Assembly (NCBI GenBank): GCA_964482715.1
Contig: CAYZYX010000016.1
Location: 1-36,813, forward strand
Length of the DNA: 36,813 nt
Reading direction: 5' to 3'
From: an uncultured Clostridia bacterium
GTDB lineage: Bacteria; Aerophobota; Aerophobia; Aerophobales; B3-G15
Shown here: in pieces, positions 1 to 33,122 of the stretch
Numbering within the stretch: position 1 is the first letter of the stretch
How the letters are laid out: every line of letters starts with the position of its first letter
The notes under the pieces: generated by a model
Told to the model about the DNA's origin: nothing
The model's database searches: none
The model's input: only the letters and a program-made list of their open reading frames with translations
Program-made: the position numbers and the translations under genes

Positions 1-67
1 CCTTTACTCTTAGAGGAAGATCGTTAATTTTTAATAGGATCCTTAACATTTTTAGAAAGGGATAAAG

Positions 68-937
68 CTAGTCAGTGGGATGGACGAATAATTTGCCTTG
101 AGCCACAGGTTCACCTTTTTCTCTGATCGTAAAGGGCAATTCAGCCATTATCCTTTTTTTATCCGTGTAGTTGACAACTATTTTTGCCAGATAATCTCCC
201 GGAGGAAGCATTTCCTTAGTTATGATGGTAAATTTACGCATACTTTCGGGAAAAATAATTCCCTGTCCTACAGCAAGAGGAAATTTTTCTATTTCTTTAC
301 CCTTTTTATCTTCAATAACTAAAGTCCCCTGAGTGCGAATGTGTACATTACCTTCATTCTTTAAGGTAATTATAAACATAAGCTGACCTTTTTTCTTTAA
401 AGACTCGATTTCAATGTTTCCTAAAGTAACTTTACGTTGAAGCTTTTGTGATCCCTTTACTACAAGCACTAAAAAAGAAACCATTCGCCAGCTTACCGCA
501 TTTAGTTTATCATTAACTGCTTCTTCTGGAACCTGTTCCACTACGATGGCAGCATAATAGCCACCTTCCGAATCTGGAGGAATGTTTAAGGTAATCGGAA
601 CATCTTTTCTTTCCTCTGAGCTGACTACAATTTGTGAAGAGCCTAATTTTATCCATCGACTGGCTGAACGCTTTAAAGTTCCAGGTGGGTAAAATACAAC
701 CTCCCCTTCTTTGGTGAGACAAAAATCAAGAGGATAAAGACTTACTTTTATCCTCCCTCCTGTTGAGGAAGAATTAATGATGCTGAGCTTATAAACTTCT
801 TTTTGTTCAGGTTGAGTCTCTATTTCATAGATTACAGGAGTAACCATAAAAGAATTCTGTGAAAAGACTTTTCCTATCATAAAAAAAAGGGTTAACACTA
901 CTATGAAACATCCAATCACCTTTTCCAGTTTGTGCAT
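68..937 (-). CDS. Exported Ig-fold protein, PapD-like chaperone / DUF916-like
   Basis: 289 aa. N-terminal hydrophobic signal or anchor (VIGCFIVVLTLFFMIG), then beta-rich segments (ASRWIKL..., VPITLNIPPDSEGGYYAAIVVE, LKNEGNVHIR, GxIFPESMRKF, PPGDYLAKIVVNY) typical of PapD/DUF916-type Ig domains. Confidence 0.55.
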   Translation of the reverse strand: MHKLEKVIGCFIVVLTLFFMIGKVFSQNSFMVTPVIYEIETQPEQKEVYKLSIINSSSTGGRIKVSLYPLDFCLTKEGEVVFYPPGTLKRSASRWIKLGSSQIVVSSEERKDVPITLNIPPDSEGGYYAAIVVEQVPEEAVNDKLNAVSWRMVSFLVLVVKGSQKLQRKVTLGNIEIESLKKKGQLMFIITLKNEGNVHIRTQGTLVIEDKKGKEIEKFPLAVGQGIIFPESMRKFTIITKEMLPPGDYLAKIVVNYTDKKRIMAELPFTIREKGEPVAQGKLFVHPTD

Positions 938-1096
938 AAATCTACCTTACCAACGAACTTCTGGTTAAATAGTTAACAGTTTTTACCTCTTTGTCAAATA
1001 TCACCTAATTTTTAAGGTTTTAAATTCGAAGATAAGGTTATATTAAAGCAGGAGGGTAAATTAATTTTAGTATTTGCCGGGTTGACAAATTTGGAC

Positions 1097-1324
1097 TCAC
1101 CGACTTTTCTTTTCCTTCTGAAAGGCGATTCTGAATTCTCTGTAAATGGCAATTACTGAGAGGAAAAGGAGGGACACTCCCGGGAGAAGGAAAATAGGGC
1201 TTCCTCCAACCAAGGAGTAGTGGACTGATGTGATTCCCACCCAGACGGCTGCAGCTATACCCAAAGTCCAGAAGAAAAGAACGGTTTTCTCCAGAAAGGA
1301 TCTTGCTATTTTTCTTCCAGACAT
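1097..1324 (-). CDS. Small hypothetical membrane protein (2 TM)
   Basis: 75 aa with two hydrophobic stretches and a basic C-tail. ATG preceded by GAGGG; starts 9 bp after the upstream ORF stop. Confidence 0.6.
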   Translation of the reverse strand: MSGRKIARSFLEKTVLFFWTLGIAAAVWVGITSVHYSLVGGSPIFLLPGVSLLFLSVIAIYREFRIAFQKEKKSR

Positions 1325-1333
1325 AGTTTACCC

Positions 1334-1666
1334 TCACCAGGCAAGCTCCAATTTGGAGCGGAGGTAATTTATAAGACTGTTGCAAAATTCTCTCTCAAGG
1401 GATACCTCGTTTCTTTCTTTCTTTTTCTCCTCTTTCTGCTGGGAGAGGCCTGTTTCCTCTTCTTCCGCTTTTTCAATGATAAGCTCGGGATGGTTTATTT
1501 TAAAGGTTCTTTCCTCAAGTCTCTTTTTAAATTCCTCAAGTTCTGATATTCTCCACTCTGACCTTGCAATTTCGCGATCAACCTGGCTTATTCTCTCATC
1601 AAGTTTTGCTCTTCTTTCTTCAAGTTCTTTTATCCACTCAACTATTTCATTTTCTCTCTCTGACAA
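1334..1666 (-). CDS. Small coiled-coil hypothetical protein
   Basis: 110 aa, E/K/R-rich with heptad pattern. TTG start preceded by AAGAGG. Confidence 0.65.
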   Translation of the reverse strand: MSERENEIVEWIKELEERRAKLDERISQVDREIARSEWRISELEEFKKRLEERTFKINHPELIIEKAEEEETGLSQQKEEKKKERNEVSLEREFCNSLINYLRSKLELAW

Positions 1667-1751
1667 AGCTTTCCTCTTTTCTCTGATATTTTACAAAACA
1701 AAATTATATCCTTGCTTGCACCAGTAAGGTTCAAACCCATTTTTATCAGAA

Positions 1752-1913
1752 TTATCTTAAATTTCTCTCTGTCTTAATAAGGGGAAGATCACCCAGAGGC
1801 GTTCTTATTTTGCCCTTTTCCACAGCAATTTCAAAGCTTTCTCCTCTTATGGCAAGGTAAATTTTCTGTCCACCACTTGTTCCAAGAAATGTGAAAATCT
1901 GGCCTCCTTTCAA
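1752..1913 (-). CDS. Unannotated 53-aa small protein (MKGGQIFTFLGTSGGQKIYLAIRGESFEIAVEKGKIRTPLGDLPLIKTERNLR)
   Basis: Read manually; absent from the ORF track, whose shortest entries are 60 aa. TTG start preceded by strong SD AAAGGAGAGG and directly downstream of a sigma-54 promoter. Confidence 0.65.
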   Translation of the reverse strand: MKGGQIFTFLGTSGGQKIYLAIRGESFEIAVEKGKIRTPLGDLPLIKTERNLR

Positions 1914-1960
1914 CTTACCTCTCCTTTAGTTATTCAATTTTTTATTTTGTTTTAAGGAGG

Positions 1961-1975
1961 GCAAATTTTATGCCA
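1961..1975 (-). promoter_or_regulatory. Sigma-54 (-24/-12) promoter
   Basis: Minus strand reads TGGCATAAAATTTGC: GG-N10-GC spacing with TGGCA and TTGC cores. It is intergenic and adjacent to a bEBP/rpoN cluster. Confidence 0.75.
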
Positions 1976-1994
1976 TTTGAGAGGAGGGATTTAA

Positions 1995-3347
1995 TTAAAT
2001 CTTTATTCTGTATTTTTTTATTTTTCGGCGGAGGGTGTTACGGTGGATTCCAAGAAGCCGGGAAGCTTTAGTTTGATTTCCACCGGTAGCCCTGAGGGCA
2101 TCAAGAATGAGCTTTTTTTCTGCTTCTTCAATGGAGGGAGGAGAAGACTCCTCAGAAATCCGGGCTTTTTGAAAGTGAGGAGAAAGATCTTCCAGGGTCA
2201 AAATTTCCCTGCCAGAGAGTATAACGGCTCTTTCCATTACATTTTCCAGTTCCCTCACATTTCCCGGCCAACTGTAACTTAAAAGCCTTTCCATAACCCG
2301 GGGAGAAATATTTTTAACCTTCTTTCCATGAATCTGGTTGTATTTTTTTAAAAAATGCCAGGCTAAAAGAGGAATATCTTCTTTCCTGTCTCTAAGAGGT
2401 GGAACAAAAATACCCACGACATTTAACCTGTAGTATAGATCTTCCCGAAAACTTCCTTCTTTAATCATCTTTTCCAGATCTCTGTTGGTGGCAGCAAGGA
2501 TCCGAACATCAACCTGTATAGGCTTTGTGCCTCCCACACGGGTAAAGCTCCTTTCCTGGATAACTCTTAATATCTTCGCCTGCATTCTGAGAGTCATATC
2601 AGAGATTTCATCAAGAAAAATTGTTCCCCTGTTTGCCACCTCAAACATTCCTTCTTTTTTGTAAGTAGCATCAGTAAAGGCACCTTTTTCATGTCCAAAG
2701 AGTTCTGCTTCCAGTAAACTCTCCGGAAGAGCGGCACAATTGACAGGAACAAAGGGAGCTTTTTTTCTCGGTGAGTTATAATGAATGGCTCTGGCAATGA
2801 GTTCTTTTCCTGTACCACTTTCCCCCCTGATCAGGACGGTAGAGCTTGTGGGTGCTATTTTGGAGATAAGCTCAAAAAGCTGGTGCATCTTTTTACATTT
2901 TCCTACAATGTGGTCAAACTTATATTTTTCTTCAAGCTGTCTTTCCAGCTCTCTGACTTTTTTCTCCAGATTTTTCATGTGCAGAACTCTTCTAAGAACC
3001 ACCTTCAACTCCTCAAGATCAAAGGGTTTGGGGAAAAAATCCTGCACACCCAGTCTTACTGCTTCCTGAGGGGCCTTTTTGTTTTTGCTCCCGGTCATAA
3101 TAATCACTCCTACATCAGGATAGAAACTTCTAAGATGGGAGAGTAATTTAAGTCCCTCCTCAGGACCTGTGGACCTGGGGGGGAGCTGAAGGTCAAGAAG
3201 AACAGCTTCTATACCGCATTCATCGAGAACCTTGCAGGCAACATCCACATTCTTTGCCTCCAGAACCCGGTATTCATCCTTCAAAGCCCAGAGAAGCTGT
3301 TTCCTTAATGTATCATCATCCTCAACTATAAGAATTCCCGGCTTCAC
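1995..3347 (-). CDS. Sigma-54-dependent response regulator (REC-AAA+-Fis HTH), PrsR/NtrC-like
   Basis: Receiver domain (LIVEDD...LLDLQLPP...KPF), GESGTGKE, GAFTDA loop, FLDEI, FREDLYYRLNV, WPGNVREL, C-terminal Fis HTH (GNQTKASRLLGIHRNTL). Confidence 0.95.
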   Translation of the reverse strand: MKPGILIVEDDDTLRKQLLWALKDEYRVLEAKNVDVACKVLDECGIEAVLLDLQLPPRSTGPEEGLKLLSHLRSFYPDVGVIIMTGSKNKKAPQEAVRLGVQDFFPKPFDLEELKVVLRRVLHMKNLEKKVRELERQLEEKYKFDHIVGKCKKMHQLFELISKIAPTSSTVLIRGESGTGKELIARAIHYNSPRKKAPFVPVNCAALPESLLEAELFGHEKGAFTDATYKKEGMFEVANRGTIFLDEISDMTLRMQAKILRVIQERSFTRVGGTKPIQVDVRILAATNRDLEKMIKEGSFREDLYYRLNVVGIFVPPLRDRKEDIPLLAWHFLKKYNQIHGKKVKNISPRVMERLLSYSWPGNVRELENVMERAVILSGREILTLEDLSPHFQKARISEESSPPSIEEAEKKLILDALRATGGNQTKASRLLGIHRNTLRRKIKKYRIKI

Positions 3348-5482
3348 AGGCGTTCCTCCAAAATCCTCTCCAGCATTTTCTTTTCAGCTTCTCTCTGTTT
3401 TTCCAGAGCGATCTCTATCTCGCTTCTCCTTATATATCCCATGTCTATAAGAATTCTGCCTATCCTTCTTTTGTCTGTAGCCTGAACCTGCATGGCTTTC
3501 TTGAGCTTTTCTTCTGAGATAACCCCCATGTCAAGAAGATACTGACCGAGTCTTTTTCTCACAAGTCCCTTCCTTGCATTCTGAGCAAAAAGGGGAATTT
3601 TGATTCTGAATAATGTTCCTTTCCGGGGAGCACTTTCTACCTCAATTTCCCCTCCATGAAGACGCACTATTTCCCGGGCAGAATAAAGAGCAAGACCAAG
3701 ACCTTTCTCTTTGGTGCTGACAAAGGGCTTAAAAAGACGACTTTCGATGAAATCCTGGCTCATTCCCACTCCACTGTCTTTTATCTCCACATACACCTGG
3801 GAATCAGAGATTTTGGCCAGGGACTTTATTTCCAGAATTCCTCCCTCCGGCATAGCCTCAAGAGCATTCATCATGATGTTACGAAACACTCTTTTTATAG
3901 AGGAGGCATCAAGCATAAGCAGGGGAATATCGCCGTACTTTTCCCGCAGACTGATACCGGGAATACTTCTTAATCCCAGTTCCTCAACGACTTCTTTTAG
4001 TATTTGATTTACAGAGTAAGGTTTAAGTTCAAGTTGCGCCGGGTGTTCACCTATTTTCTCGGTAAGGGACTGAATCTTTTTCACGCTGGCAGAAATTGTG
4101 GCCAGAAAATCCTCCTTAAATTGAGGATCGTTATAGTAACGTCTGGCATTGTGCAAGGACAGGGATAGCTTGGCAATAGCTCCTCTCAGGTCGTGAAGGA
4201 TTATGGAAGCAAGACGGTTAAAAGAATCAAGTTGCCTTGATTCCAGCATGAGATCCAGGAGAAAAGAATTTTCCATTATTAGATTTGCTTCTTCCAGAAA
4301 GGTGGATACCATCTGAAGCTCATCAAAGTCAAACCCCTTTTCCTGAGAGTTAAGGACCACTATTCCCCAGAGAGAATTTTTAGCCATCAGAGGATAGGCA
4401 AAAGCTGTAACTCTTTTTATATCCTTTAGAGGAAGATTAAGCTCAAGGGATACTTCTTTCTGGTTTATTACACCAAGAGCCTTGCCTGAATTTGCCACTT
4501 TTTGGGCAAGTCGGGTAAAAAACTCTTTATCTATACCTTCACCCCTGGTTGCCCGGGGAAGGAGCTTCTTTCCTGAAAGGGAGAAAAAAACACCCTGGTC
4601 TGCCCGGGAAATGTTCATGCTGATGGATAAGATAAAGCTGAATTTCCTTCCCGACGAAAGAGAAGTTCTTAAAGCCTTGGTTGCACGGTTTAAAAGCTGG
4701 AGAGTCTGGATTTTTCTCTCCAACCTTTCATTGTAAAAGGCGGAGTTCTTGTTTGCCTCTTCAAGTTTTTCTTTTTCCTCTTTAAGGGTTTCTACCATCC
4801 GGTTAAATACACTGGATAACCTCCCCACTTCGTCTTTGCTTTTTACCGGTATTTTCACCGAGAAATTGCCCCGGGAAATATTTTCAGTTGCCTGAATTAG
4901 TTTTTCAATGGGATGGGTAATTCTGTCACCAATAATAAGAAAAATCAAAGATGCTCCAGCAATTACTGCCAGGGTGAGAAGGAGGAAAAGCTGGATAGCT
5001 TTTTTTACTTGCTGATTGAGAGATTCAAGACTAAAACCAATTCTCACATTTCCCCATCTAATAGAGGAAAACTGAATGGGAGAGGAAATCTCGTATATTT
5101 TAAGGTCTTTTAGCTTATAGGTTTGATAAATCACCCCTTTTGCTCTTACCGCTCTTATGCTTACAGGGTCATAGAGAATGTCAGAACTTCGAGAATAATC
5201 GGTGGTGAGAATAACCTTCCCCTGAGGATCGGTAATTATGATGTATTCAATATCCTTATCTTTGATCAGCTCGTTTATGTAGAAATTTAGGTCAGAGAAA
5301 TTGCTGGTGACAAAGGAGTTGATTGAAGCAAGGGAAAGGGTTTGGGAGAGAGCAAGGCCTCTTTCTTCAAGCCTTTTGTAAAAAGCCTCTTTTTCCCGAT
5401 GAAGACTTATCATCTGCAGGGTGAAGAGAACAAGCAGTGTAGAGGCAAAAAAGAGAAGATAAAACTTGTTTTTTAGTTTCAT
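3344..5482 (-). CDS. Sensor histidine kinase (TM-periplasmic sensor-TM-HAMP-GAF-HisKA-HATPase) with C-terminal MshEN motif
   Basis: HAMP (ITHPIEKL...DEVGRL). PrsK-like H-box (RQLDSFNRLASIILHDL...NDPQFKEDFLATI). N/G1/F/G2 boxes (NIMMNALEAM, DSGVGM, LFKPFVSTK, GLGLAL). Tandem RLG/RIG motifs at aa 644-696. Confidence 0.92.
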   Translation of the reverse strand: MKLKNKFYLLFFASTLLVLFTLQMISLHREKEAFYKRLEERGLALSQTLSLASINSFVTSNFSDLNFYINELIKDKDIEYIIITDPQGKVILTTDYSRSSDILYDPVSIRAVRAKGVIYQTYKLKDLKIYEISSPIQFSSIRWGNVRIGFSLESLNQQVKKAIQLFLLLTLAVIAGASLIFLIIGDRITHPIEKLIQATENISRGNFSVKIPVKSKDEVGRLSSVFNRMVETLKEEKEKLEEANKNSAFYNERLERKIQTLQLLNRATKALRTSLSSGRKFSFILSISMNISRADQGVFFSLSGKKLLPRATRGEGIDKEFFTRLAQKVANSGKALGVINQKEVSLELNLPLKDIKRVTAFAYPLMAKNSLWGIVVLNSQEKGFDFDELQMVSTFLEEANLIMENSFLLDLMLESRQLDSFNRLASIILHDLRGAIAKLSLSLHNARRYYNDPQFKEDFLATISASVKKIQSLTEKIGEHPAQLELKPYSVNQILKEVVEELGLRSIPGISLREKYGDIPLLMLDASSIKRVFRNIMMNALEAMPEGGILEIKSLAKISDSQVYVEIKDSGVGMSQDFIESRLFKPFVSTKEKGLGLALYSAREIVRLHGGEIEVESAPRKGTLFRIKIPLFAQNARKGLVRKRLGQYLLDMGVISEEKLKKAMQVQATDKRRIGRILIDMGYIRRSEIEIALEKQREAEKKMLERILEERL

Positions 5483-5497
5483 TTTAAAATCCTGTGG

Positions 5498-6802
5498 TTA
5501 AAATTCGGCAAATATAACTGTATAGATTTTTCCTCTCCGGGTAACCTCTTCTTTTAAACTTATACCGGAATACTGTCTAAAGATTCCCTGACTATTTTTT
5601 GACTCCGGGTAGTTTAAGAGGAGATCTTTAACCTTCTGCAAAAGCTCTGGAGAAATATTTTTTCTTGCCACCAGAACATCAGCCGGAACCTTGGTTGAAC
5701 GAGCAAGGATACGCATTTTGGGAGAGATATTTTCGGTTGAGGTAAGGTAGTTAAATATGTGTTCGGCCAGAGCTCCCGCATCCACTCTTTTTTCCAGTAA
5801 GCTGTAGAAAACCTCTTCCTGGGAATTCATGTAATAAACCCGGGAAAAATACAATGGGTTTATACCCCTTTCAAGAAGAGTCATTTGAGGAAGAATAAAA
5901 CCAGTTAGAGAGTCTTTTTTACCAAAAGCAAAACTTTTCCCCTCCAGTTGTTTAAGACTGTAAATATCCTGCTCGGAGGTAACTATAACACTTCGCTGGG
6001 TGCTTTCCTTATTGGAGGAAACAAGAAAAAGAGGGGTTATCTCTTCTTGATATTCTATATTCATGAGGTCCTCCGGGCCAAGAATGGCAATGTCAATTTC
6101 TCCTTTCTGCAGGTATTTTGCAAGAACCTCGTACCTGGAAAAGAGGGAAAGTTCGATGCGACAGTTTAAATTTCGAGAAAGACGACCCAAAAGAGGCTGA
6201 ACCACCTTCAATGTTGTTAAGGGGGTAAGTTCCGATTTAATCCCCACTTTAAGAATATATGGAGAGTGGCGAAGTTCCTCCTGATATGCTTTTTTTAAAG
6301 TGGAAAGAAGTTTTGGGTTATTGGGAAAGACTTTACTTGCCTTAAGAAGCAGTTCAACTGCGCGGGAAGGCTCTCTTTCCTTAAGGTAAAGCTCGGAAAG
6401 GTAAAGGTAACCCTCGAGGAGTTTTGGATTAAACTCAATTGCTTTTTTAAAACTCTCCATTGCCTTTTCAGTATCTTGCTGACTCAGGTATTCTCTGCCC
6501 CGAGCAAGTATCTTAATGGAACACCAGTGAATTCTTACCTGCCATAAGGAAAAAAATATAACTACTCCTATGCCTCCCACCATTAACCATTTTATTTTAT
6601 TTATTTTGCTGGGAAAAACCCTGCCAGAAATTTCTGACCTAAAATAGTGCACTATTTTAGAAGGAAAAATTTTCTTTACTACATCCTTACTTCGATGCAA
6701 AATCTCTAAGAATTTTTGCATCAAAATGCAGCAGATTCTTTTCCCTGAATCTCTTATTTTACCTGAAGCCCTTTTTTCTCTCTCCCCGCTTTTGAACAGC
6801 AA
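5498..6802 (-). CDS. Membrane-anchored TPR + PhnD/SsuA-type periplasmic substrate-binding protein
   Basis: One TM segment, about 2 TPR repeats (GREYL...FKKAIEFNPK...YLYLSELY), then a PhnD-like domain (GEIDIAILGP, SLKQLEGKSFAFG..DSLTGFILP, VDAGAL). The true start may lie downstream of the TTG at 6802. Confidence 0.8.
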   Translation of the reverse strand: MLFKSGEREKRASGKIRDSGKRICCILMQKFLEILHRSKDVVKKIFPSKIVHYFRSEISGRVFPSKINKIKWLMVGGIGVVIFFSLWQVRIHWCSIKILARGREYLSQQDTEKAMESFKKAIEFNPKLLEGYLYLSELYLKEREPSRAVELLLKASKVFPNNPKLLSTLKKAYQEELRHSPYILKVGIKSELTPLTTLKVVQPLLGRLSRNLNCRIELSLFSRYEVLAKYLQKGEIDIAILGPEDLMNIEYQEEITPLFLVSSNKESTQRSVIVTSEQDIYSLKQLEGKSFAFGKKDSLTGFILPQMTLLERGINPLYFSRVYYMNSQEEVFYSLLEKRVDAGALAEHIFNYLTSTENISPKMRILARSTKVPADVLVARKNISPELLQKVKDLLLNYPESKNSQGIFRQYSGISLKEEVTRRGKIYTVIFAEF

Positions 6803-6805
6803 TTT

Positions 6806-7951
6806 TTATGCCATCCTTTTGAGTTTCTTTCTTTCCAGAGAAGAGGGAATTTTTAATTCTCTGCGATACTTGGCTACAGTGCGGCGGGCAATCCTTATTC
6901 CAAATTTTAACCTGAGTTCTCTTGCTATTTCTGCATCATTCAAAGGTAAATCCTGGATTCCCCTTTTTATTTTCTCTTTCTCCTGACTTATTATCCTGAC
7001 GAGAAGCGCCTTAATTTTTTCTTTTTCTCCCGGGAAAAATTCCTTCAGTTCTTTTTCCTCTCCCCAGGGACAAATTATGCTCTTTCTGGCTATGGTTCTG
7101 CTTACGGTTGACGGATTAACCTGGAGAGTGCCGGCTACTTCTTTTTGAGTTAAAGGGACAAGCTGGCGGGGATTTCCGGATAAAAAGTAGGGACGTTGCC
7201 TTTCCTTTATGTGAGTGAGTATTTGATAGAGAGTTGTGGTCCGCTGGTTGATCATATCTAACTTTCGAAAAAGGCTGGATATTTTCTTTACCTTCCAGGG
7301 AGGAATTTCCCTTTCTTTGACAAGAATTTCCCAGCGCTGGTAATCTATGATGTATCTTCCCCGAACGAGATAGGTGGAATCATCAAGAGGAAGTATGTAG
7401 AGTTTTCCCTCACGATTCTCGATATAAGCCACACGCTCCTTTCTGGGAAGATACGCTGGAGGAGATGAACCATCAGTCTCAACGGTAAAAAAGCTCTCCT
7501 GAAGTTGAAAACTGTTAATAAAATCCTTAAATTTTTGAGTTTCTTCAGGGGAAAGATCACATTCCCGGGAAATATCATCAAAGGAGAGGCTATTTTTTCC
7601 CTCTAAAAATAAAGAAAATTTTTCTTCTCCGATTTGAAGAGCCACCTTTTTTACCACTTCCCAGCTATCCGGATCTTTCTGGACAAGCTCGGTAAAATCA
7701 AAGCTATCTCCAGGAGTGAGCTCTTCTTTCAATTCCAGGGAAGGAGGAACAGGCTTAACTGCGGGGAATTTTCGATACCTCACTATTCTGTATTTTCTTA
7801 AAATTTCCTGAAAAAGCTCGTCCTTTTCTATTTTTTCTATGAACTGGCTGAACTGCTTTTCTGAAAGAGAGAAAAAATTTCCCAGTTTCATTCTCCCCAT
7901 AAGTTTAGCTCGGGGAACAAGCTTCGTCCTGGGTCTGTAGGAAAGCTCCAT
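6806..7951 (-). CDS. rpoN: Divergent RNA polymerase sigma-54 factor (RpoN-like)
   Basis: Intact RpoN box IARRTVAKYRRELKIPSS and -12 HTH region PLTQKEVA..L.VNPSTVSR. The N-terminal half is short and divergent. SD AAGGAGG. Confidence 0.85.
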   Translation of the reverse strand: MELSYRPRTKLVPRAKLMGRMKLGNFFSLSEKQFSQFIEKIEKDELFQEILRKYRIVRYRKFPAVKPVPPSLELKEELTPGDSFDFTELVQKDPDSWEVVKKVALQIGEEKFSLFLEGKNSLSFDDISRECDLSPEETQKFKDFINSFQLQESFFTVETDGSSPPAYLPRKERVAYIENREGKLYILPLDDSTYLVRGRYIIDYQRWEILVKEREIPPWKVKKISSLFRKLDMINQRTTTLYQILTHIKERQRPYFLSGNPRQLVPLTQKEVAGTLQVNPSTVSRTIARKSIICPWGEEKELKEFFPGEKEKIKALLVRIISQEKEKIKRGIQDLPLNDAEIARELRLKFGIRIARRTVAKYRRELKIPSSLERKKLKRMA

Positions 7952-7968
7952 ACATCCTCCTTGCCTTC

Positions 7969-7997
7969 ATTATACAGAAGCTTCCTCTTCAGGTCAA
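7969..7997 (-). promoter_or_regulatory. Sigma-70-type promoter of the rpoN-led operon
   Basis: TTGACC-N17-TATAAT on the minus strand, 18 bp upstream of the ATG. Confidence 0.75.
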
Positions 7998-8139
7998 GTC
8001 AGACAATAAAAATATTTTCCATTTTTTACTCGTTTACTCTGTCAGTTGACTATTCTTCTAAAAGAGTTAAATTAAACATGTATCAGGTCTCTAATTAAAT
8101 ATTAAAGAAAAATACTTCCTGAGGTTAGAGGGAATAAAA

Positions 8140-8385
8140 ATGAAAACTTATGTTTTTAGAGTGGTGATTGAGCCAGATGAGGATCGATGGTTTGCCTATT
8201 GCCCGGTGCTTGAAAATAAAGGAGCGGCCACCTGGGGGTACACTAAAGAGGAAGCTCTAAAAAACATTCAAGAAGTTGTCCAAATGATAGTGGAAGAACT
8301 TATCGAAGATGGAGAACCAATACCCCAAGAACCAAAGGAGGAAGTTCAGGTTTTCTCTGAGCTCCGAGTGGCAGTTACTACCTAA
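8140..8385 (+). CDS. hicB: HicB-family antitoxin (short form)
   Basis: F.VVIEPDED.WFAYCP.L...ATWG.T.EEAL.NI.E........EDGEPIP signature. Confidence 0.9.
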   Translation: MKTYVFRVVIEPDEDRWFAYCPVLENKGAATWGYTKEEALKNIQEVVQMIVEELIEDGEPIPQEPKEEVQVFSELRVAVTT

Positions 8386-8393
8386 CTAACATC

Positions 8394-8556
8394 ATGACTG
8401 TTGACTACAGTAAGCTGAGAAATCTAACTGCTCGTGAAATTATTAACGCCCTTTCTCGCGATGGATTTTACTTGAGAAAGCAAAGAGGAAGCCATCATTG
8501 AAAAACAGGCCAAATGGACTGAAAAAGATTTAAAAAGGTTAAAACTTTTAAAGTAA
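8394..8556 (+). pseudogene. hicA: HicA toxin pseudogene (internal deletion with frameshift)
   Basis: MTVDYSKLRNLTAREIINALSRDGFYLRKQRGSHH then stop at 8499-8501. A HicA-like C-terminus (IIEKQAKWTEKDLKRLKLLK*) resumes at once in another frame. Confidence 0.8.
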
Positions 8557-8810
8557 AGTCAAGTCCTTCAGTCCGGTAAGCATTTTCATTTCCCATTAAA
8601 TTAATTTACCCAGAAATTTTCCAATTTCAGGCTCTCTAAAATGTATATTTAAATAAAAACGATATGAATTGGTACAATGAACAAGAAATGAGATAAAAGA
8701 AAGCCTTGAAGAATCCCCAGGAAGAAAACTGTACTCTTAGAGAAAGTTAAGGATGAGCTACAAGGCAGAGCTTGAGAGGTATTTGTGCTCAAAGAAGAAA
8801 AAAGGGAAAT

Positions 8811-15104: not shown

Positions 15105-16493
15105 TCACCTTATCTTTTTTCTAAGATGATTTAAAATTAAGATTGAAAGGTCTGTTATATCTCCTGCGCCTACCGTTATTACCAGATCCTTTTCTTTAAT
15201 ATTTTCACTTATAAATTCTAAAATCTCTTTCCAGGAGGAAAAAAAATAGGTGGGGAATTTTCTCCTTCTGGAAACTGCCTCAAAAAAAACCTCCTCGCTT
15301 ACTCCCTCAATAGGCCTCTCGCCAGCTGAGTAAATGGGGGTTAAAATAAGAACATCAACCTCTTCAAAGGCCTCCGCAAATTGAGGCAGAAAAAAACGTG
15401 ATCTTGTGTAGCGATGTGGTTGAAATATAACCAGGGTCCTTCTTCCCAGACGACGAATTTCCTTTATAGTAGCCTTAATTTCAGTGGGATGGTGAGCATA
15501 ATCATCAAATATCCAGATAGACCCTGCTTCACCTACCTTTTCCATTCTTCTTTTTACACCACTAAAAAAGCTAAGAGTTTTCTTTATTCTTTGCCAGGAA
15601 ATGCCAAGTTCAAGTCCAGCACAGATTGCAGCCAGACTGTTGTAAACATTGTGAATTCCAGCCAGAGGAACATCAACCCTGCCCAAAAGGTGAGTCCTGT
15701 AGTAAACACTGAAAGATGACTTAAGAGGGGAAAGTTCAATATTTCGGGCCATTATATGGGATTTATTTTTAATCCCGTAGGTAAAAATCTTTCTCTTTAG
15801 ATTTCTGGTGTGGATAAGATGATTGATTGGAGGATCATCCAGATTTAAAACCAGGAAACCCCGGGATTTAACCCCCTCCATAAATCGGTAAAAGGCAAGA
15901 AGAAGGTCTCTTTTTGAGCCATAATACTCCAGGTGATCATCTTCAATGTTGGTGACTACCCCCACACTGGGATGATGGAGAAGAAAGGAGCCATCAGATT
16001 CATCTGATTCCACAATCATCCATCTACTTTTTCCCAGCCGGCTGTTTGATTGTATCCTGTTTAATATGCCCCCTACCAGCAGGGTGGGATCCCGGCCCTC
16101 TTCCAGAAGAAGCTCGGCAATGAGGGAAGCTGTGGTGGTTTTCCCGTGAGTTCCAGCTACAACTATACTTTCCTTTAAGTTAGAGATTTCGGCTACCAGT
16201 TTTCCCCGTGAAACAAGGGAAATCCTTTTTCTTCTTGCCTCTTTGATTTCCGGATTATCCTCCCCTATAGCTGAAGAAAAAACAACAAGGTTGGCGTTTT
16301 TTACCCGGGCTCCCCTGTGTCCCTGACTGATAGAAGCCCCCATTTTTTTGAGTTTCCGGGTAAAGGCGTTTTCTTTAAGATCAGAACCTGTAACCCTGTA
16401 TCCTGCCTGAATAAAGATGCCCGCCAGTCCACTCATACCTATTCCACCAATCCCGACAAAGTGAAAGTGCATTTTAGACCTCACTCCGGCCAT
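15105..16493 (-). CDS. murC: UDP-N-acetylmuramate--L-alanine ligase
   Basis: HFVGIGGIGMSGLA, GTHGKTTT, ESDESDGSF, DDYAHHPTE, FQPHRYTR. Confidence 0.97.
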   Translation of the reverse strand: MAGVRSKMHFHFVGIGGIGMSGLAGIFIQAGYRVTGSDLKENAFTRKLKKMGASISQGHRGARVKNANLVVFSSAIGEDNPEIKEARRKRISLVSRGKLVAEISNLKESIVVAGTHGKTTTASLIAELLLEEGRDPTLLVGGILNRIQSNSRLGKSRWMIVESDESDGSFLLHHPSVGVVTNIEDDHLEYYGSKRDLLLAFYRFMEGVKSRGFLVLNLDDPPINHLIHTRNLKRKIFTYGIKNKSHIMARNIELSPLKSSFSVYYRTHLLGRVDVPLAGIHNVYNSLAAICAGLELGISWQRIKKTLSFFSGVKRRMEKVGEAGSIWIFDDYAHHPTEIKATIKEIRRLGRRTLVIFQPHRYTRSRFFLPQFAEAFEEVDVLILTPIYSAGERPIEGVSEEVFFEAVSRRRKFPTYFFSSWKEILEFISENIKEKDLVITVGAGDITDLSILILNHLRKKIR

Positions 16494-32090: not shown

Positions 32091-33122
32091 TTATTTGTTT
32101 TCAGTTTGTTTTTTACTTTCTCTGTTAACAAATTGTTGTAGTTCAACCAATGATTTCAAATCAGATACTCCTCCCAGTGCTTTGGCAGCAAGATCCTGAA
32201 CCTTTTGATAAGCCGCCTCCAGCTGCTGAAGTAATCTGGCAATTTGTTCGCTCTGTTCTTTTGTTTTTCTCTCTAACATTTCAATCTTTGCCTGAAGAAC
32301 ATTTCGTTCCCCTTCAAATGCTTTTCTCAATAGAGCTTCTCTATTTTCGGCTTCCTGGCGCATCTTCTGCTGGGTTTCTTTTACCGCCCTGTTTACTGCT
32401 AATTCCATTTCCTTAGGAAAAGCATCGACCTTCTTTTTTAGCTGGTTAAACTCTTCTTCTCTCTGGCTGATAGCCCTTTCTCTTTCTGCCAGTTCTCTCT
32501 CAACAGACTCCCTTTTAAGGTGAAGTTCTTTGTCCAATTTTGCCTTCTCATCTTCAAACTTGTCTCTTGCCAGTTTTTGTTCTCGCTCCAAATTATAGGT
32601 ATATTCTTCCTGTTCTCGCTGCACTTTTCTTTTCTCACTTTCCCATTGTGTTTTTAGCTGCTGAATCTCCTTTTCTAATTCTTCCTTTCTATTTCTCATC
32701 TCTTCTTCGAACTCTTTCTTCTTCTGAGAATGAGCCTCTATCAAAGCAGTTAGGGTATGAGCGGCTTTTTCTATTTCGTAAATTTCTTTAAGTTCAGCTT
32801 TTTTAACCTCAATGGCCTCTTTGATTTTTTGATACTCACCAACTTGATTTTCCAGTTTTTCTGAGAGCTGGGTAAGCATCTTCCCGATTTCTAACCTTAA
32901 GTCATTTATTTTTCTCATAACACCTTCGGAAGACAGTGTATCAACTGCGTCTACAACTTCTCTGTTCTTTTTTTCGGCTATTTTCCTCTCCGGTTTTAAC
33001 TCAGCTTCTTCTTTTTCCTGAAGCTTTCTTAAAAGTTCGTTGTAAGCTTCCAGCATCTCCTTTTTGGTGCTTGCCATGGATATTTTTCTGGGTCTTTGTT
33101 CTTTCTTTTTGCCGTTTGCCAT
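32091..33122 (-). CDS. Long coiled-coil hypothetical protein
   Basis: 343 aa, nearly all E/K/R/Q/L heptads, no TM; SD AAGGGAGG. Confidence 0.85.
   Translation of the reverse strand: MANGKKKEQRPRKISMASTKKEMLEAYNELLRKLQEKEEAELKPERKIAEKKNREVVDAVDTLSSEGVMRKINDLRLEIGKMLTQLSEKLENQVGEYQKIKEAIEVKKAELKEIYEIEKAAHTLTALIEAHSQKKKEFEEEMRNRKEELEKEIQQLKTQWESEKRKVQREQEEYTYNLEREQKLARDKFEDEKAKLDKELHLKRESVERELAERERAISQREEEFNQLKKKVDAFPKEMELAVNRAVKETQQKMRQEAENREALLRKAFEGERNVLQAKIEMLERKTKEQSEQIARLLQQLEAAYQKVQDLAAKALGGVSDLKSLVELQQFVNRESKKQTENK

Follow-up and report, generated by a model that had tools for sequence, protein, structure and literature searches.

A conserved Aerophobetes-type gene cassette that joins a divergent sigma-54 paralogue to a three-component sensor operon

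Gene order, promoters and relatives of the cassette

Here, we describe a regulatory gene cassette from an Aerophobetes-type bacterium, in which the gene for a sigma-54 paralogue is followed by the genes for a membrane-anchored binding protein, a sensor histidine kinase and an activator of the NtrC family. The DNA analysed, called the window in the following, is the whole 36,813-base contig C16 (CAYZYX010000016.1) of a genome of 1.57 Mb that is available in 54 contigs and is 94.7% complete (G000). The cassette lies at the left end of this contig, with all genes on the minus strand. The four-gene cassette is conserved, and it is a new combination of known parts, not a new kind of system. Its features are, in the order of transcription:

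7969..7997, minus strand: sigma-70-type promoter TTGACC-17-TATAAT upstream of the sigma-54-like gene, matching at 11 of 12 positions
6806..7951, minus strand: clade-A sigma-54 paralogue of 381 amino acids (aa), with a helix-turn-helix (HTH), the RpoN box ARRTVAKYR and a divergent N-terminal part of about 110 aa
6798..6813, minus strand: internal -24/-12 promoter TGGCATAAAAATTGCT, which overlaps the sigma-54-like gene at its stop codon; transcription is predicted to start near 6787
6717..6733, minus strand: inverted repeat TGCTGCATTTTGATGCA, imperfect, which runs over the likely start codon of the binding-protein gene
5498..6721, minus strand: membrane-anchored binding protein, 407 aa from its likely start ATG 6721, with one transmembrane (TM) helix, tetratricopeptide repeats (TPR) and a domain of the PtxB/PhnD/AioX family
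5498-6802, minus strand: longest open reading frame (ORF) of the binding protein, 434 aa, with TPR and Phosphonate-bd matches (E=5.2e-43)
3344..5482, minus strand: sensor histidine kinase of 712 aa, with the order TM, sCache_3_2, TM, HAMP, GAF-like domain, H-box (His430), HATPase_c and MshEN tail
3395..3553, minus strand: MshEN-type motif pair of the kinase (aa 644-696, 24+5+24 residues), a putative site for cyclic di-GMP (c-di-GMP)
1995..3347, minus strand: NtrC-family response-regulator activator of 450 aa, with receiver domain (REC), AAA+ domain Sigma54_activat, AAA lid and HTH_8
2667..2684, minus strand: GAFTDA codons in the activator gene, an L1-loop variant of GAFTGA

An earlier note on this DNA had listed the four regulatory genes, the sigma-70 promoter, a -24/-12 site past the activator gene, small ORFs and an exported protein with immunoglobulin (Ig)-like fold, and all of these are present. 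Comparison with relatives identifies the four regulatory genes as a conserved unit. The comparison set consists of 31 genomes of the phylum, all from one order, which are close kin and incomplete. Of the seven genes in the sigma-54 clade termed A in this study, four have the binding-protein, kinase and activator genes next in line (G000, G001, G009 and G015), two are cut by contig ends (G003 and G005), and one is unlinked. A 2,081-base contig of G002 holds the end of the kinase gene (62% identity, tail included) together with the activator gene (72%). A different order, namely activator, binding protein and kinase, is found in G024, a member of family f5, where TGGCAAAAAAATTGCT lies about 330 nt behind the kinase gene. 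Altogether, the binding protein was found in 5 of the 31 genomes. Word-based searches added 20 binding-protein clusters and 11 kinase clusters, and five binding-protein/kinase pairs of these agree in the length of their longest contig, which suggests that they lie on the same contigs; a scan of genome contigs with the binding protein returned three known relatives and TPR-only matches, but nothing else.

Upstream of the sigma-54-like gene, TTGACC-17-TATAAT is the sole 11-of-12 match among the 14 sites listed for window positions 1-8600, and a similar sigma-70-type promoter precedes the clade-A gene in five of seven genomes. The internal promoter was overlooked by the earlier note. Its pattern, TGGCAY-N5-TTGC, occurs twice in the window, versus 0.06 expected occurrences and with none of 100 shuffles giving two, and one of the two sites is the element at 6798-6813. 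In the three relatives with this region assembled, a -24/-12 element likewise lies directly behind the orthologous sigma-54-like gene (TGGTATAAAATTTGCT in G001, TGGCATAAAAGTTGCT in G015 and TGGCATAAAGATTGCC in G009). The -24/-12 columns are invariant in an alignment of the otherwise diverged spacers from four genomes in two families, and the internal promoter is the sole cassette promoter kept in all four genomes with a readable cassette.

The binding-protein orthologues align from about residue 70 onward only. The first in-frame ATG past the internal promoter, at 6721, gives a protein of 407 aa, and several metagenomic relatives are 406-407 aa long. Since the orthologue alignment and this ATG place the start later, the 3-bp gap behind the sigma-54-like gene is an artefact of the longest ORF, and a spacer of about 84 nt holds the promoter. 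The gaps of 3, 15 and -4 bp given by the earlier note are thus correct as distances between longest ORFs, but the first of them does not describe the likely genes.

In the window (6635-6733) as well as in relatives, inverted repeats similar to TGCAC-N7-GTGCA come after the internal promoter and lie ahead of the binding-protein start codon or overlap it. A position downstream of the promoter is unusual for an enhancer, and an operator, a downstream enhancer and an RNA hairpin are candidate roles. As enhancer candidates, the palindromes near the two cassette promoters are at most a lead: allowing at most one mismatch, TGCAC-N7-GTGCA occurs at 10 sites versus about 27 expected, two of them intergenic, and is not enriched.

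The sensor proteins, the output arm and the surrounding DNA

The binding domain of the cassette protein is nearest to phosphite-binding PtxB (E=1e-19), with PhnD next, followed by AioX and ArrX (6e-9 to 3e-7). The earlier note had proposed a link from the binding protein to the kinase, and a fold model agrees with it. The periplasmic part of the binding protein (residues 95-434) was modelled with the kinase Cache domain (26-168), which gave a score of 0.71 versus 0.01 for the best of three controls. Among solved complexes, 116 of 157 reached this mark, as did 2 of 215 mismatched pairs; the model was made with own alignments, so these counts apply roughly. The runs share at least 90% of the contacts, and the partner has a predicted local distance difference test score (pLDDT) of at least 83. 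In the modelled interface, the last TPR helices (149-180) pack against kinase residues 104-113, including the invariant Y104-D105-P106, and the interface makes use of residues that are invariant in both alignments. The model supports a contact between the binding protein and the Cache domain of the kinase.

Pfam recognises sCache_3_2, HAMP, a weak GAF and HATPase_c in the kinase. The MshEN assignment of the earlier note is in good agreement with the 24+5+24 layout of the tail and with its matches to MshE (5HTL, E=9e-7) and PilF (6F8L, E=5e-14); MshEN is described as two 24-residue motifs of the type RLGxxLLxxGxIxxxxLxxxLxxQ with a 5-residue spacer (PMC10519070). The motif pair is intact in all five kinase orthologues, with conserved RLG, G and Q positions. 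Across G000, the Pfam model of MshEN (PF05157) found a PilB-like ATPase only and missed the kinase tail, because only the N-subdomain of MshEN is present there. Four GGDEF matches were found in the same genome. The main text of PMC5013675, the paper on MshEN, makes no use of the term 'histidine kinase'.

Past the activator gene, the cassette is followed by an output arm with these features:

1960..1975, minus strand: second -24/-12 promoter TGGCATAAAATTTGCC, 19 nt past the activator stop codon; predicted start near 1949
1752..1913, minus strand: 53-aa ORF with an AAGGAG-like ribosome-binding site, without family match
1717..1733, no strand: NtrC-like near-palindrome TGAACC-N5-GGTGCA, located past the 53-aa ORF and ahead of the 110-aa ORF
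1334..1666, minus strand: 110-aa ORF, predicted coiled coil, without family match
1097..1324 (alternatively 1038-1385), minus strand: hydrophobic 75-aa ORF with two membrane segments by eye, without family match
68..937, minus strand: exported 289-aa protein, WxLIP/PapD-like in its fold and with two Ig-like domains, 67 nt from the contig end

The fold of the 289-aa protein was modelled from a 33-row alignment (pLDDT 90.5), the single-sequence fold being unusable (pLDDT 37.9). Foldseek ranks WxLIP of E. faecium first (9i1y, E=2.7e-12, TM-score 0.47-0.50), followed by CfaA, CsuC and PapD. The Pfam model PF06030 scores 17.2 bits versus a cut-off of 27.3, which is passed by 3 of 12 relatives scanned. 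The protein family comprises 4,608 representatives at E<=0.001, and the best 150 of these are mostly about 500-600 aa long with two matched stretches. A word-based search for neighbours of the protein gave three matches. A first metagenome scan found none; a second one found three loci with relatives, two of them 526-aa tandem forms and none together with a cassette gene.

The output arm is real DNA in several assemblies, and it is lineage-specific. DNA contigs of sequencing runs cover window positions 1-8100 in pieces, with none spanning the whole interval, and no RNA run is listed as containing this stretch. One contig of run X2 bridges 1737-3172, across the second -24/-12 promoter, and the indels among the best-supported ones listed for it lie in spacers, outside the small ORFs. 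The small ORFs had no tblastn match in the relatives' loci compared. In G001, a homologue of the 289-aa protein with 28% identity is encoded about 3 kb away from the cassette. Its gene is the first of a convergent operon that also contains SBP_bac_5 and pyrroloquinoline quinone (PQQ)-propeller genes, and no -24/-12 site was found before it. The same convergent genes occupy the position of the output arm in G015. The earlier note regarded the -24/-12 site and the genes behind it as the target of the circuit and as a surface-structure programme. Promoter and arm are indeed present in G000, but they are not conserved, with G001 and G015 carrying convergent unrelated genes instead; the arm is at most a local output of G000.

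The remainder of C16 holds housekeeping genes (recO, a sigma-70, ribosomal proteins, murC/G, secDF and others) and toxin-antitoxin pairs. In line with the earlier note, there is no lptB/hpf-type context. Nor was an exosortase found, whose context the note had likewise reported as missing: PF09721 has no match in the 94.7%-complete genome. Toxin-antitoxin-type genes, namely HicB-like, Phd/ParE and nucleotidyltransferase/HepT-like pairs, flank the cassette and fill the right end of the contig (window 8140-8385, 9560-10226, 34852-35554 and 35867-36670). A 343-aa ORF at window 32091-33122 on the minus strand has no Pfam match at E<=1e-6.

Two sigma-54 clades and two activator loop types

The 381-aa protein matches Sigma54_DBD (PF04552) with E=5.4e-30, and its best match is RpoN entry 5UI5, a chain of 342 residues (E=1.6e-14). 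With TIGR02395 it scores 126.5 bits, below the equivalog cut-off of 277.35. An alignment with hhalign places residues 112-377 on canonical sigma-54 positions 214-470 (probability 99.8) and leaves about 110 N-terminal residues unaligned. By eye, the N-terminus carries a Region-I-like pattern, (F/L)(F/L)SLPE-x-EF...I...E-x-D-x-LF, in all clades; this is a reading, not a statistical test. Genome-wide, G000 has two Sigma54_DBD matches, and neither Sigma54_CBD (PF04963) nor Sigma54_AID (PF00309) gives a match at E<=1. The second paralogue, which keeps HTH and RpoN box as the first one does, is a 372-aa protein on contig C12, encoded by the last gene of a fliP-fliQ-fliR-flhB-flhA-fliA-small ORF cluster. 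The earlier note had suggested looking for a second, canonical rpoN; a second copy thus exists, but a search for a canonical rpoN gave none. Across the 31 genomes, sigma-54-like genes are as a rule short. The flagellar paralogue is followed directly, in G000 (C12:3833-4726) and in relatives, by conserved genes for a DUF1670 HTH protein and a methyl-accepting chemotaxis protein, after which G000 has a PAS-GAF-HD (HD_5) protein.

A tree of the sigma-54-like proteins was computed from 33 rows, with rows shorter than 300 aa or containing stops dropped. The tree contains a clade A of seven genes, supported by an approximate likelihood-ratio test (SH-aLRT) value of 98, and a sister clade B of nine genes (support 95). 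One clade from family f5 (f5-I) stands beside A and B, and a second f5 group (f5-II) outside. Clades A and B coexist in G000, G001, G005, G009 and G015. Clade B adjoins flhA/fliA in seven loci. The flagellar gene flgF was detected in 12 of the 31 genomes and not in G003, where only a clade-A gene was found. A co-divergence scenario that holds A and f5-I together, a grouping named post hoc, costs 13.4 log-likelihood units (p-AU 0.022, approximately unbiased test), which speaks against a simple two-lineage history. One further sigma-54-like copy, in G017 (C179:25600-26682), has three TGA and one TAA codons in frame. This probable pseudogene is located upstream of genes for a kinase and a GSFTDA activator.

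Strong -24/-12 sites are found at several places in G000. Besides the two in the cassette, they lie before flgF-flgG-flgA-flgH-flgI and the following genes (C14), before a MerR-PseB-like gene (C53), behind a hydrogenase-linked kinase-activator pair (C6) and behind an activator gene of the flagellar region (C12), such that three of the four activator genes of this genome are followed by a site. A -24/-12 promoter precedes flgF in 11 genomes and the PseB-like gene in three, and the elements are alike across the cassette, flagellar, PseB-like and hydrogenase classes. In five relatives, a pattern search limited cassette-type promoters to the internal promoter, the PseB-like gene, one site in G003 behind a hydrogenase-type activator gene and one in G005. 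The base at position -11 was tried as a discriminator and rejected. It is T or C in the cassette, A before flgF in six of six f1 genomes and T in four other families, and other G000 promoters have C; the pattern is not clean.

Some of these sites have recurrent surroundings. Seven genomes share a conserved element similar to GAAAATTTTTCC at a distance of about 95 nt ahead of the flgF promoter (G000 C14 ~15600-15660), a candidate enhancer for the flagellar activator. The order activator gene, -24/-12 promoter 150-200 nt downstream, and gene for a single-domain receiver recurs in G000 (C6:29452-29467 and C12:33447-33462) and on C192 of G003; the C6 copy is located between a NiFe-hydrogenase large-subunit-like gene with the kinase-activator pair and a Mrp-antiporter-like gene. 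The gene at G000 C53:3207-4469 fuses a MerR-type HTH to a PseB/Polysacc_synt_2 dehydratase and is followed by epimerase and DegT aminotransferase genes. The promoter ahead of this set is conserved in G001 and G009, and the set may represent a sigma-54-controlled sugar pathway, e.g., for flagellin glycosylation.

The activators differ in the L1 loop that contacts Region I. In G000, the cassette activator has GAFTDA and the hydrogenase-linked one GSFTDA, and the two on C12, the contig of the flagellar cluster, both have GAFTGA. The phylum set gave 82 AAA+ matches, of which 80 were read, with two partial ones from G022 left out: 39 have FTDA, 39 FTGA, and two show no motif under the pattern used. 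Activators encoded beside clade-A or f5-I genes have FTDA in all five readable cases, one of which stands beside the degenerate G017 copy, and those beside f5-II genes have FTGA, again in five of five. Genomes in which only one clade was found follow the same split:

G003: clade A only found; FTDA 2, FTGA 0
G011: f5-I only found; FTDA 3, FTGA 0
G029: f5-I only found; FTDA 4, FTGA 0
G004: clade B only found; FTDA 0, FTGA 2
G010: clade B only found; FTDA 0, FTGA 2
G013: clade B only found; FTDA 0, FTGA 1

Exceptions are G002, which holds a cassette fragment and has two activators of either type, G007 (57% complete; one FTDA and two FTGA) and G028, with f5-II only and three FTDA versus one FTGA.

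From these counts, it is possible, if doubtful, that each cell keeps two insulated sigma-54 channels, one pairing A/f5-I factors with G(A/S)FTDA activators and one pairing B/f5-II factors with GAFTGA activators, including the flagellar ones. Against such a code stand the close kinship and incompleteness of the genomes, the weak rejection of the A plus f5-I grouping by the tree test, and Desulfovibrio vulgaris, where the GAFTDA activator DVU2106 works with a single sigma-54 according to the part of PMC4641369 available to us. The clade-A factor is probably the non-flagellar sigma-54 of the cell, which would serve the cassette and the hydrogenase-linked activators and not act as a private factor, and the clade-B paralogue in the flhBA-fliA cluster would serve the flagellar genes.

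Proposed mechanism, alternatives and meaning

On balance, the observations favour a conserved Aerophobetes-type cassette with two promoter tiers, in which a sigma-70-driven gene supplies a sigma-54 paralogue and a sigma-54-driven, self-amplifying operon supplies the three-component sensor. The internal promoter as the conserved target points to autoregulation. In this scheme, read-through from the sigma-70 promoter would give a basal level of the sensor. The binding protein would bind an extracytoplasmic ligand, for which phosphite-, phosphonate- or arsenic-class oxyanions are the most likely candidates, and would dock on the kinase Cache domain through its last TPR helices. Binding of c-di-GMP at the kinase tail may tune the kinase output. 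The phosphorylated activator would then open the sigma-54 holoenzyme at the internal promoter, which would close a positive feedback loop. It may also act at lineage-specific outputs, in G000 at the promoter 1960-1975, which would drive the three small ORFs and the gene of the WxLIP/PapD-like exported protein.

Several observations weigh against this scheme. No upstream enhancer was identified at the cassette, and the palindromes are weak in G000, lie downstream of the promoters and are not enriched. The cassette and flagellar promoters are nearly identical, so a division of promoters between the two sigma factors may be lacking. Pfam sees neither an activator-interacting nor a core-binding domain in either paralogue, and the alignment to canonical sigma-54 is limited to residues 112-377, so that activator dependence is assumed. 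The clade-A gene of G017 has no cassette and is followed by a RadC-like gene (one of the seven), and neither G003 nor G005 yielded the binding protein. Finally, the output arm is confined to G000 and near strains.

The most serious alternative, which we still consider unlikely, takes the two paralogues as interchangeable: an rpoN copy would merely be located by the sensor operon, and the functional unit would be an ordinary NtrC-like autoregulated sensor. The likeness of the -24/-12 elements at cassette, flagellar, PseB-like and hydrogenase promoters fits this explanation, as do the HTH and RpoN box present in both proteins and the GAFTDA activators that act with one sigma-54 in D. vulgaris (PMC4641369, as far as seen). 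It leaves unexplained that both clades persist together in five genomes, that clade B tracks flagella, with no flgF match in the A-only G003, and that the activators all have GAFTGA loops in B-only genomes and all have FTDA loops in A-only and f5-I-only genomes. Linkage and promoter layout, moreover, are maintained across two families.

The earlier note went further and saw a self-contained circuit, in which the clade-A sigma factor works only with the cassette activator, so as to turn on a surface-structure programme composed of the small ORFs and the PapD/WxLIP-like protein. The genes for sigma factor, sensor and activator are indeed tightly linked, a strong -24/-12 site lies 19 nt past the activator gene, the protein encoded downstream is exported with a WxLIP/PapD-like fold, and the G001 cassette has the homologue with 28% identity at a distance of about 3 kb. 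We nevertheless regard this circuit as quite improbable. G001 and G015 lack the output arm and have the convergent PQQ-propeller and SBP_bac_5 genes, and the G001 homologue lacks a -24/-12 site. The claim of a dedicated sigma factor is unproven: G003 has clade A only, yet a hydrogenase-type activator gene there is followed by its own -24/-12 site, and in G000 the hydrogenase-linked activator shares the loop type FTDA. As a general property, a private sigma factor with a surface programme is unsupported. It is very improbable that a functional Region I is missing from the short sigma-54-like proteins, so that they would need no activator or would serve as promoter or core-polymerase decoys, with the -24/-12 sites regulated otherwise: the failure of the activator-interacting and core-binding Pfam models and the N-terminal part of about 110 residues omitted by hhalign would fit, but the Region-I-like pattern, as read by eye, recurs in all clades, G000 has four strong Sigma54_activat matches with sites behind three of them, and sigma-54 factors of about 400 aa exist, the best match being the 342-residue chain of 5UI5.

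A literature search combining 'Aerophobetes' with 'sigma-54' returned no match. The earlier note did not recognise the combination as a described system; the combination is new, but its parts are all of known kinds, since the cassette joins multi-RpoN systems, AioXSR-type sensors and MshEN receptors. With RpoN1-4 of Cereibacter (Rhodobacter) sphaeroides, it shares the presence of several sigma-54 paralogues per cell, one of them flagellar. In that organism, each factor has a cognate activator (NifA, FleQ, AprX), and specificity is reported to rest on the -11 promoter base together with activator-specific contacts (PMC11999139, in the part available). In the Aerophobetes-type genomes, in contrast, a conserved -24/-12 promoter and the operon of the candidate partners come directly behind the paralogue gene, the factors are far more divergent and have no Pfam match for Region I or core binding, partner specificity is a candidate property, and the -11 base is loose (A before flgF in the f1 genomes, T or C in the cassette). 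Xanthomonas and Ralstonia likewise have two rpoN copies, RpoN1 and RpoN2, with partly separate roles and one linked to flagella (PMC7970052, PMC7280030, PMC4371752); those proteins are canonical and of full length, and the available portions of these reports mention no sensor cassette joined to the gene.

The sensor part resembles AioXSR/ArrXSR, in which a periplasmic binding protein of the PhnD/PtxB family that serves as the sensor, a membrane histidine kinase and a sigma-54-dependent response regulator are encoded in one operon (PMC5908839, PMC6011840, PMC7565993, as far as accessible). Unlike there, the cassette binding protein is membrane-anchored and closer to PtxB than to AioX, its TPR segment makes up much of the predicted kinase interface, the kinase carries a Cache domain and a MshEN tail, and the window holds no arsenite oxidase (aio) genes. 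The MshEN module itself has the two 24-residue motifs with a 5-residue joint known from V. cholerae MshE (5HTL) and T. thermophilus PilF (PMC5013675, part seen), but its place is the C-terminal end of a histidine kinase and not the N-terminus of a pilus or secretion ATPase. Among named NCBIfam models, PrsK (TIGR02916) comes closest to the kinase core and PrsR (TIGR02915) to the activator; both belong to XrtA/PEP-CTERM loci. The scores stay below the cut-offs (203.6 versus 300 bits for the kinase, 477.6 versus 502.6 for the activator), TIGR02916 covers kinase residues 346-630 only, with a different N-terminal sensor, and no exosortase was found.

These comparisons indicate what the cassette may contribute. 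Both sigma-54 genes of G000 score far under the equivalog cut-off, so such genomes could be misread as lacking rpoN. In the accessible text of PMC5908839, AioX orthologues were at that time the sole signalling members of the PtxB/PhnD family. A membrane-anchored, TPR-docked member, as predicted by the complex model, may be a third signalling use of the family after the arsenic sensors. A histidine kinase with a complete MshEN tail joins the candidate c-di-GMP receptors.

The split of activator loops that tracks the sigma-54 clades is the most interesting lead, and it is testable by swap. To our knowledge, the matching of sigma-54 paralogues with activators is understood in essentially one organism, though several multi-rpoN systems are known. 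The phylum supplies natural sigma-54/activator pairs, in which two very divergent clades coexist and the loops, split evenly, track the clades. If the two channels were real, the FTDA channel would include the sensor cassette and the hydrogenase-linked activator, a single Gly/Asp change in the loop touching Region I would be a natural specificity code, and a sigma gene ahead of its partner operon would keep the pair together.

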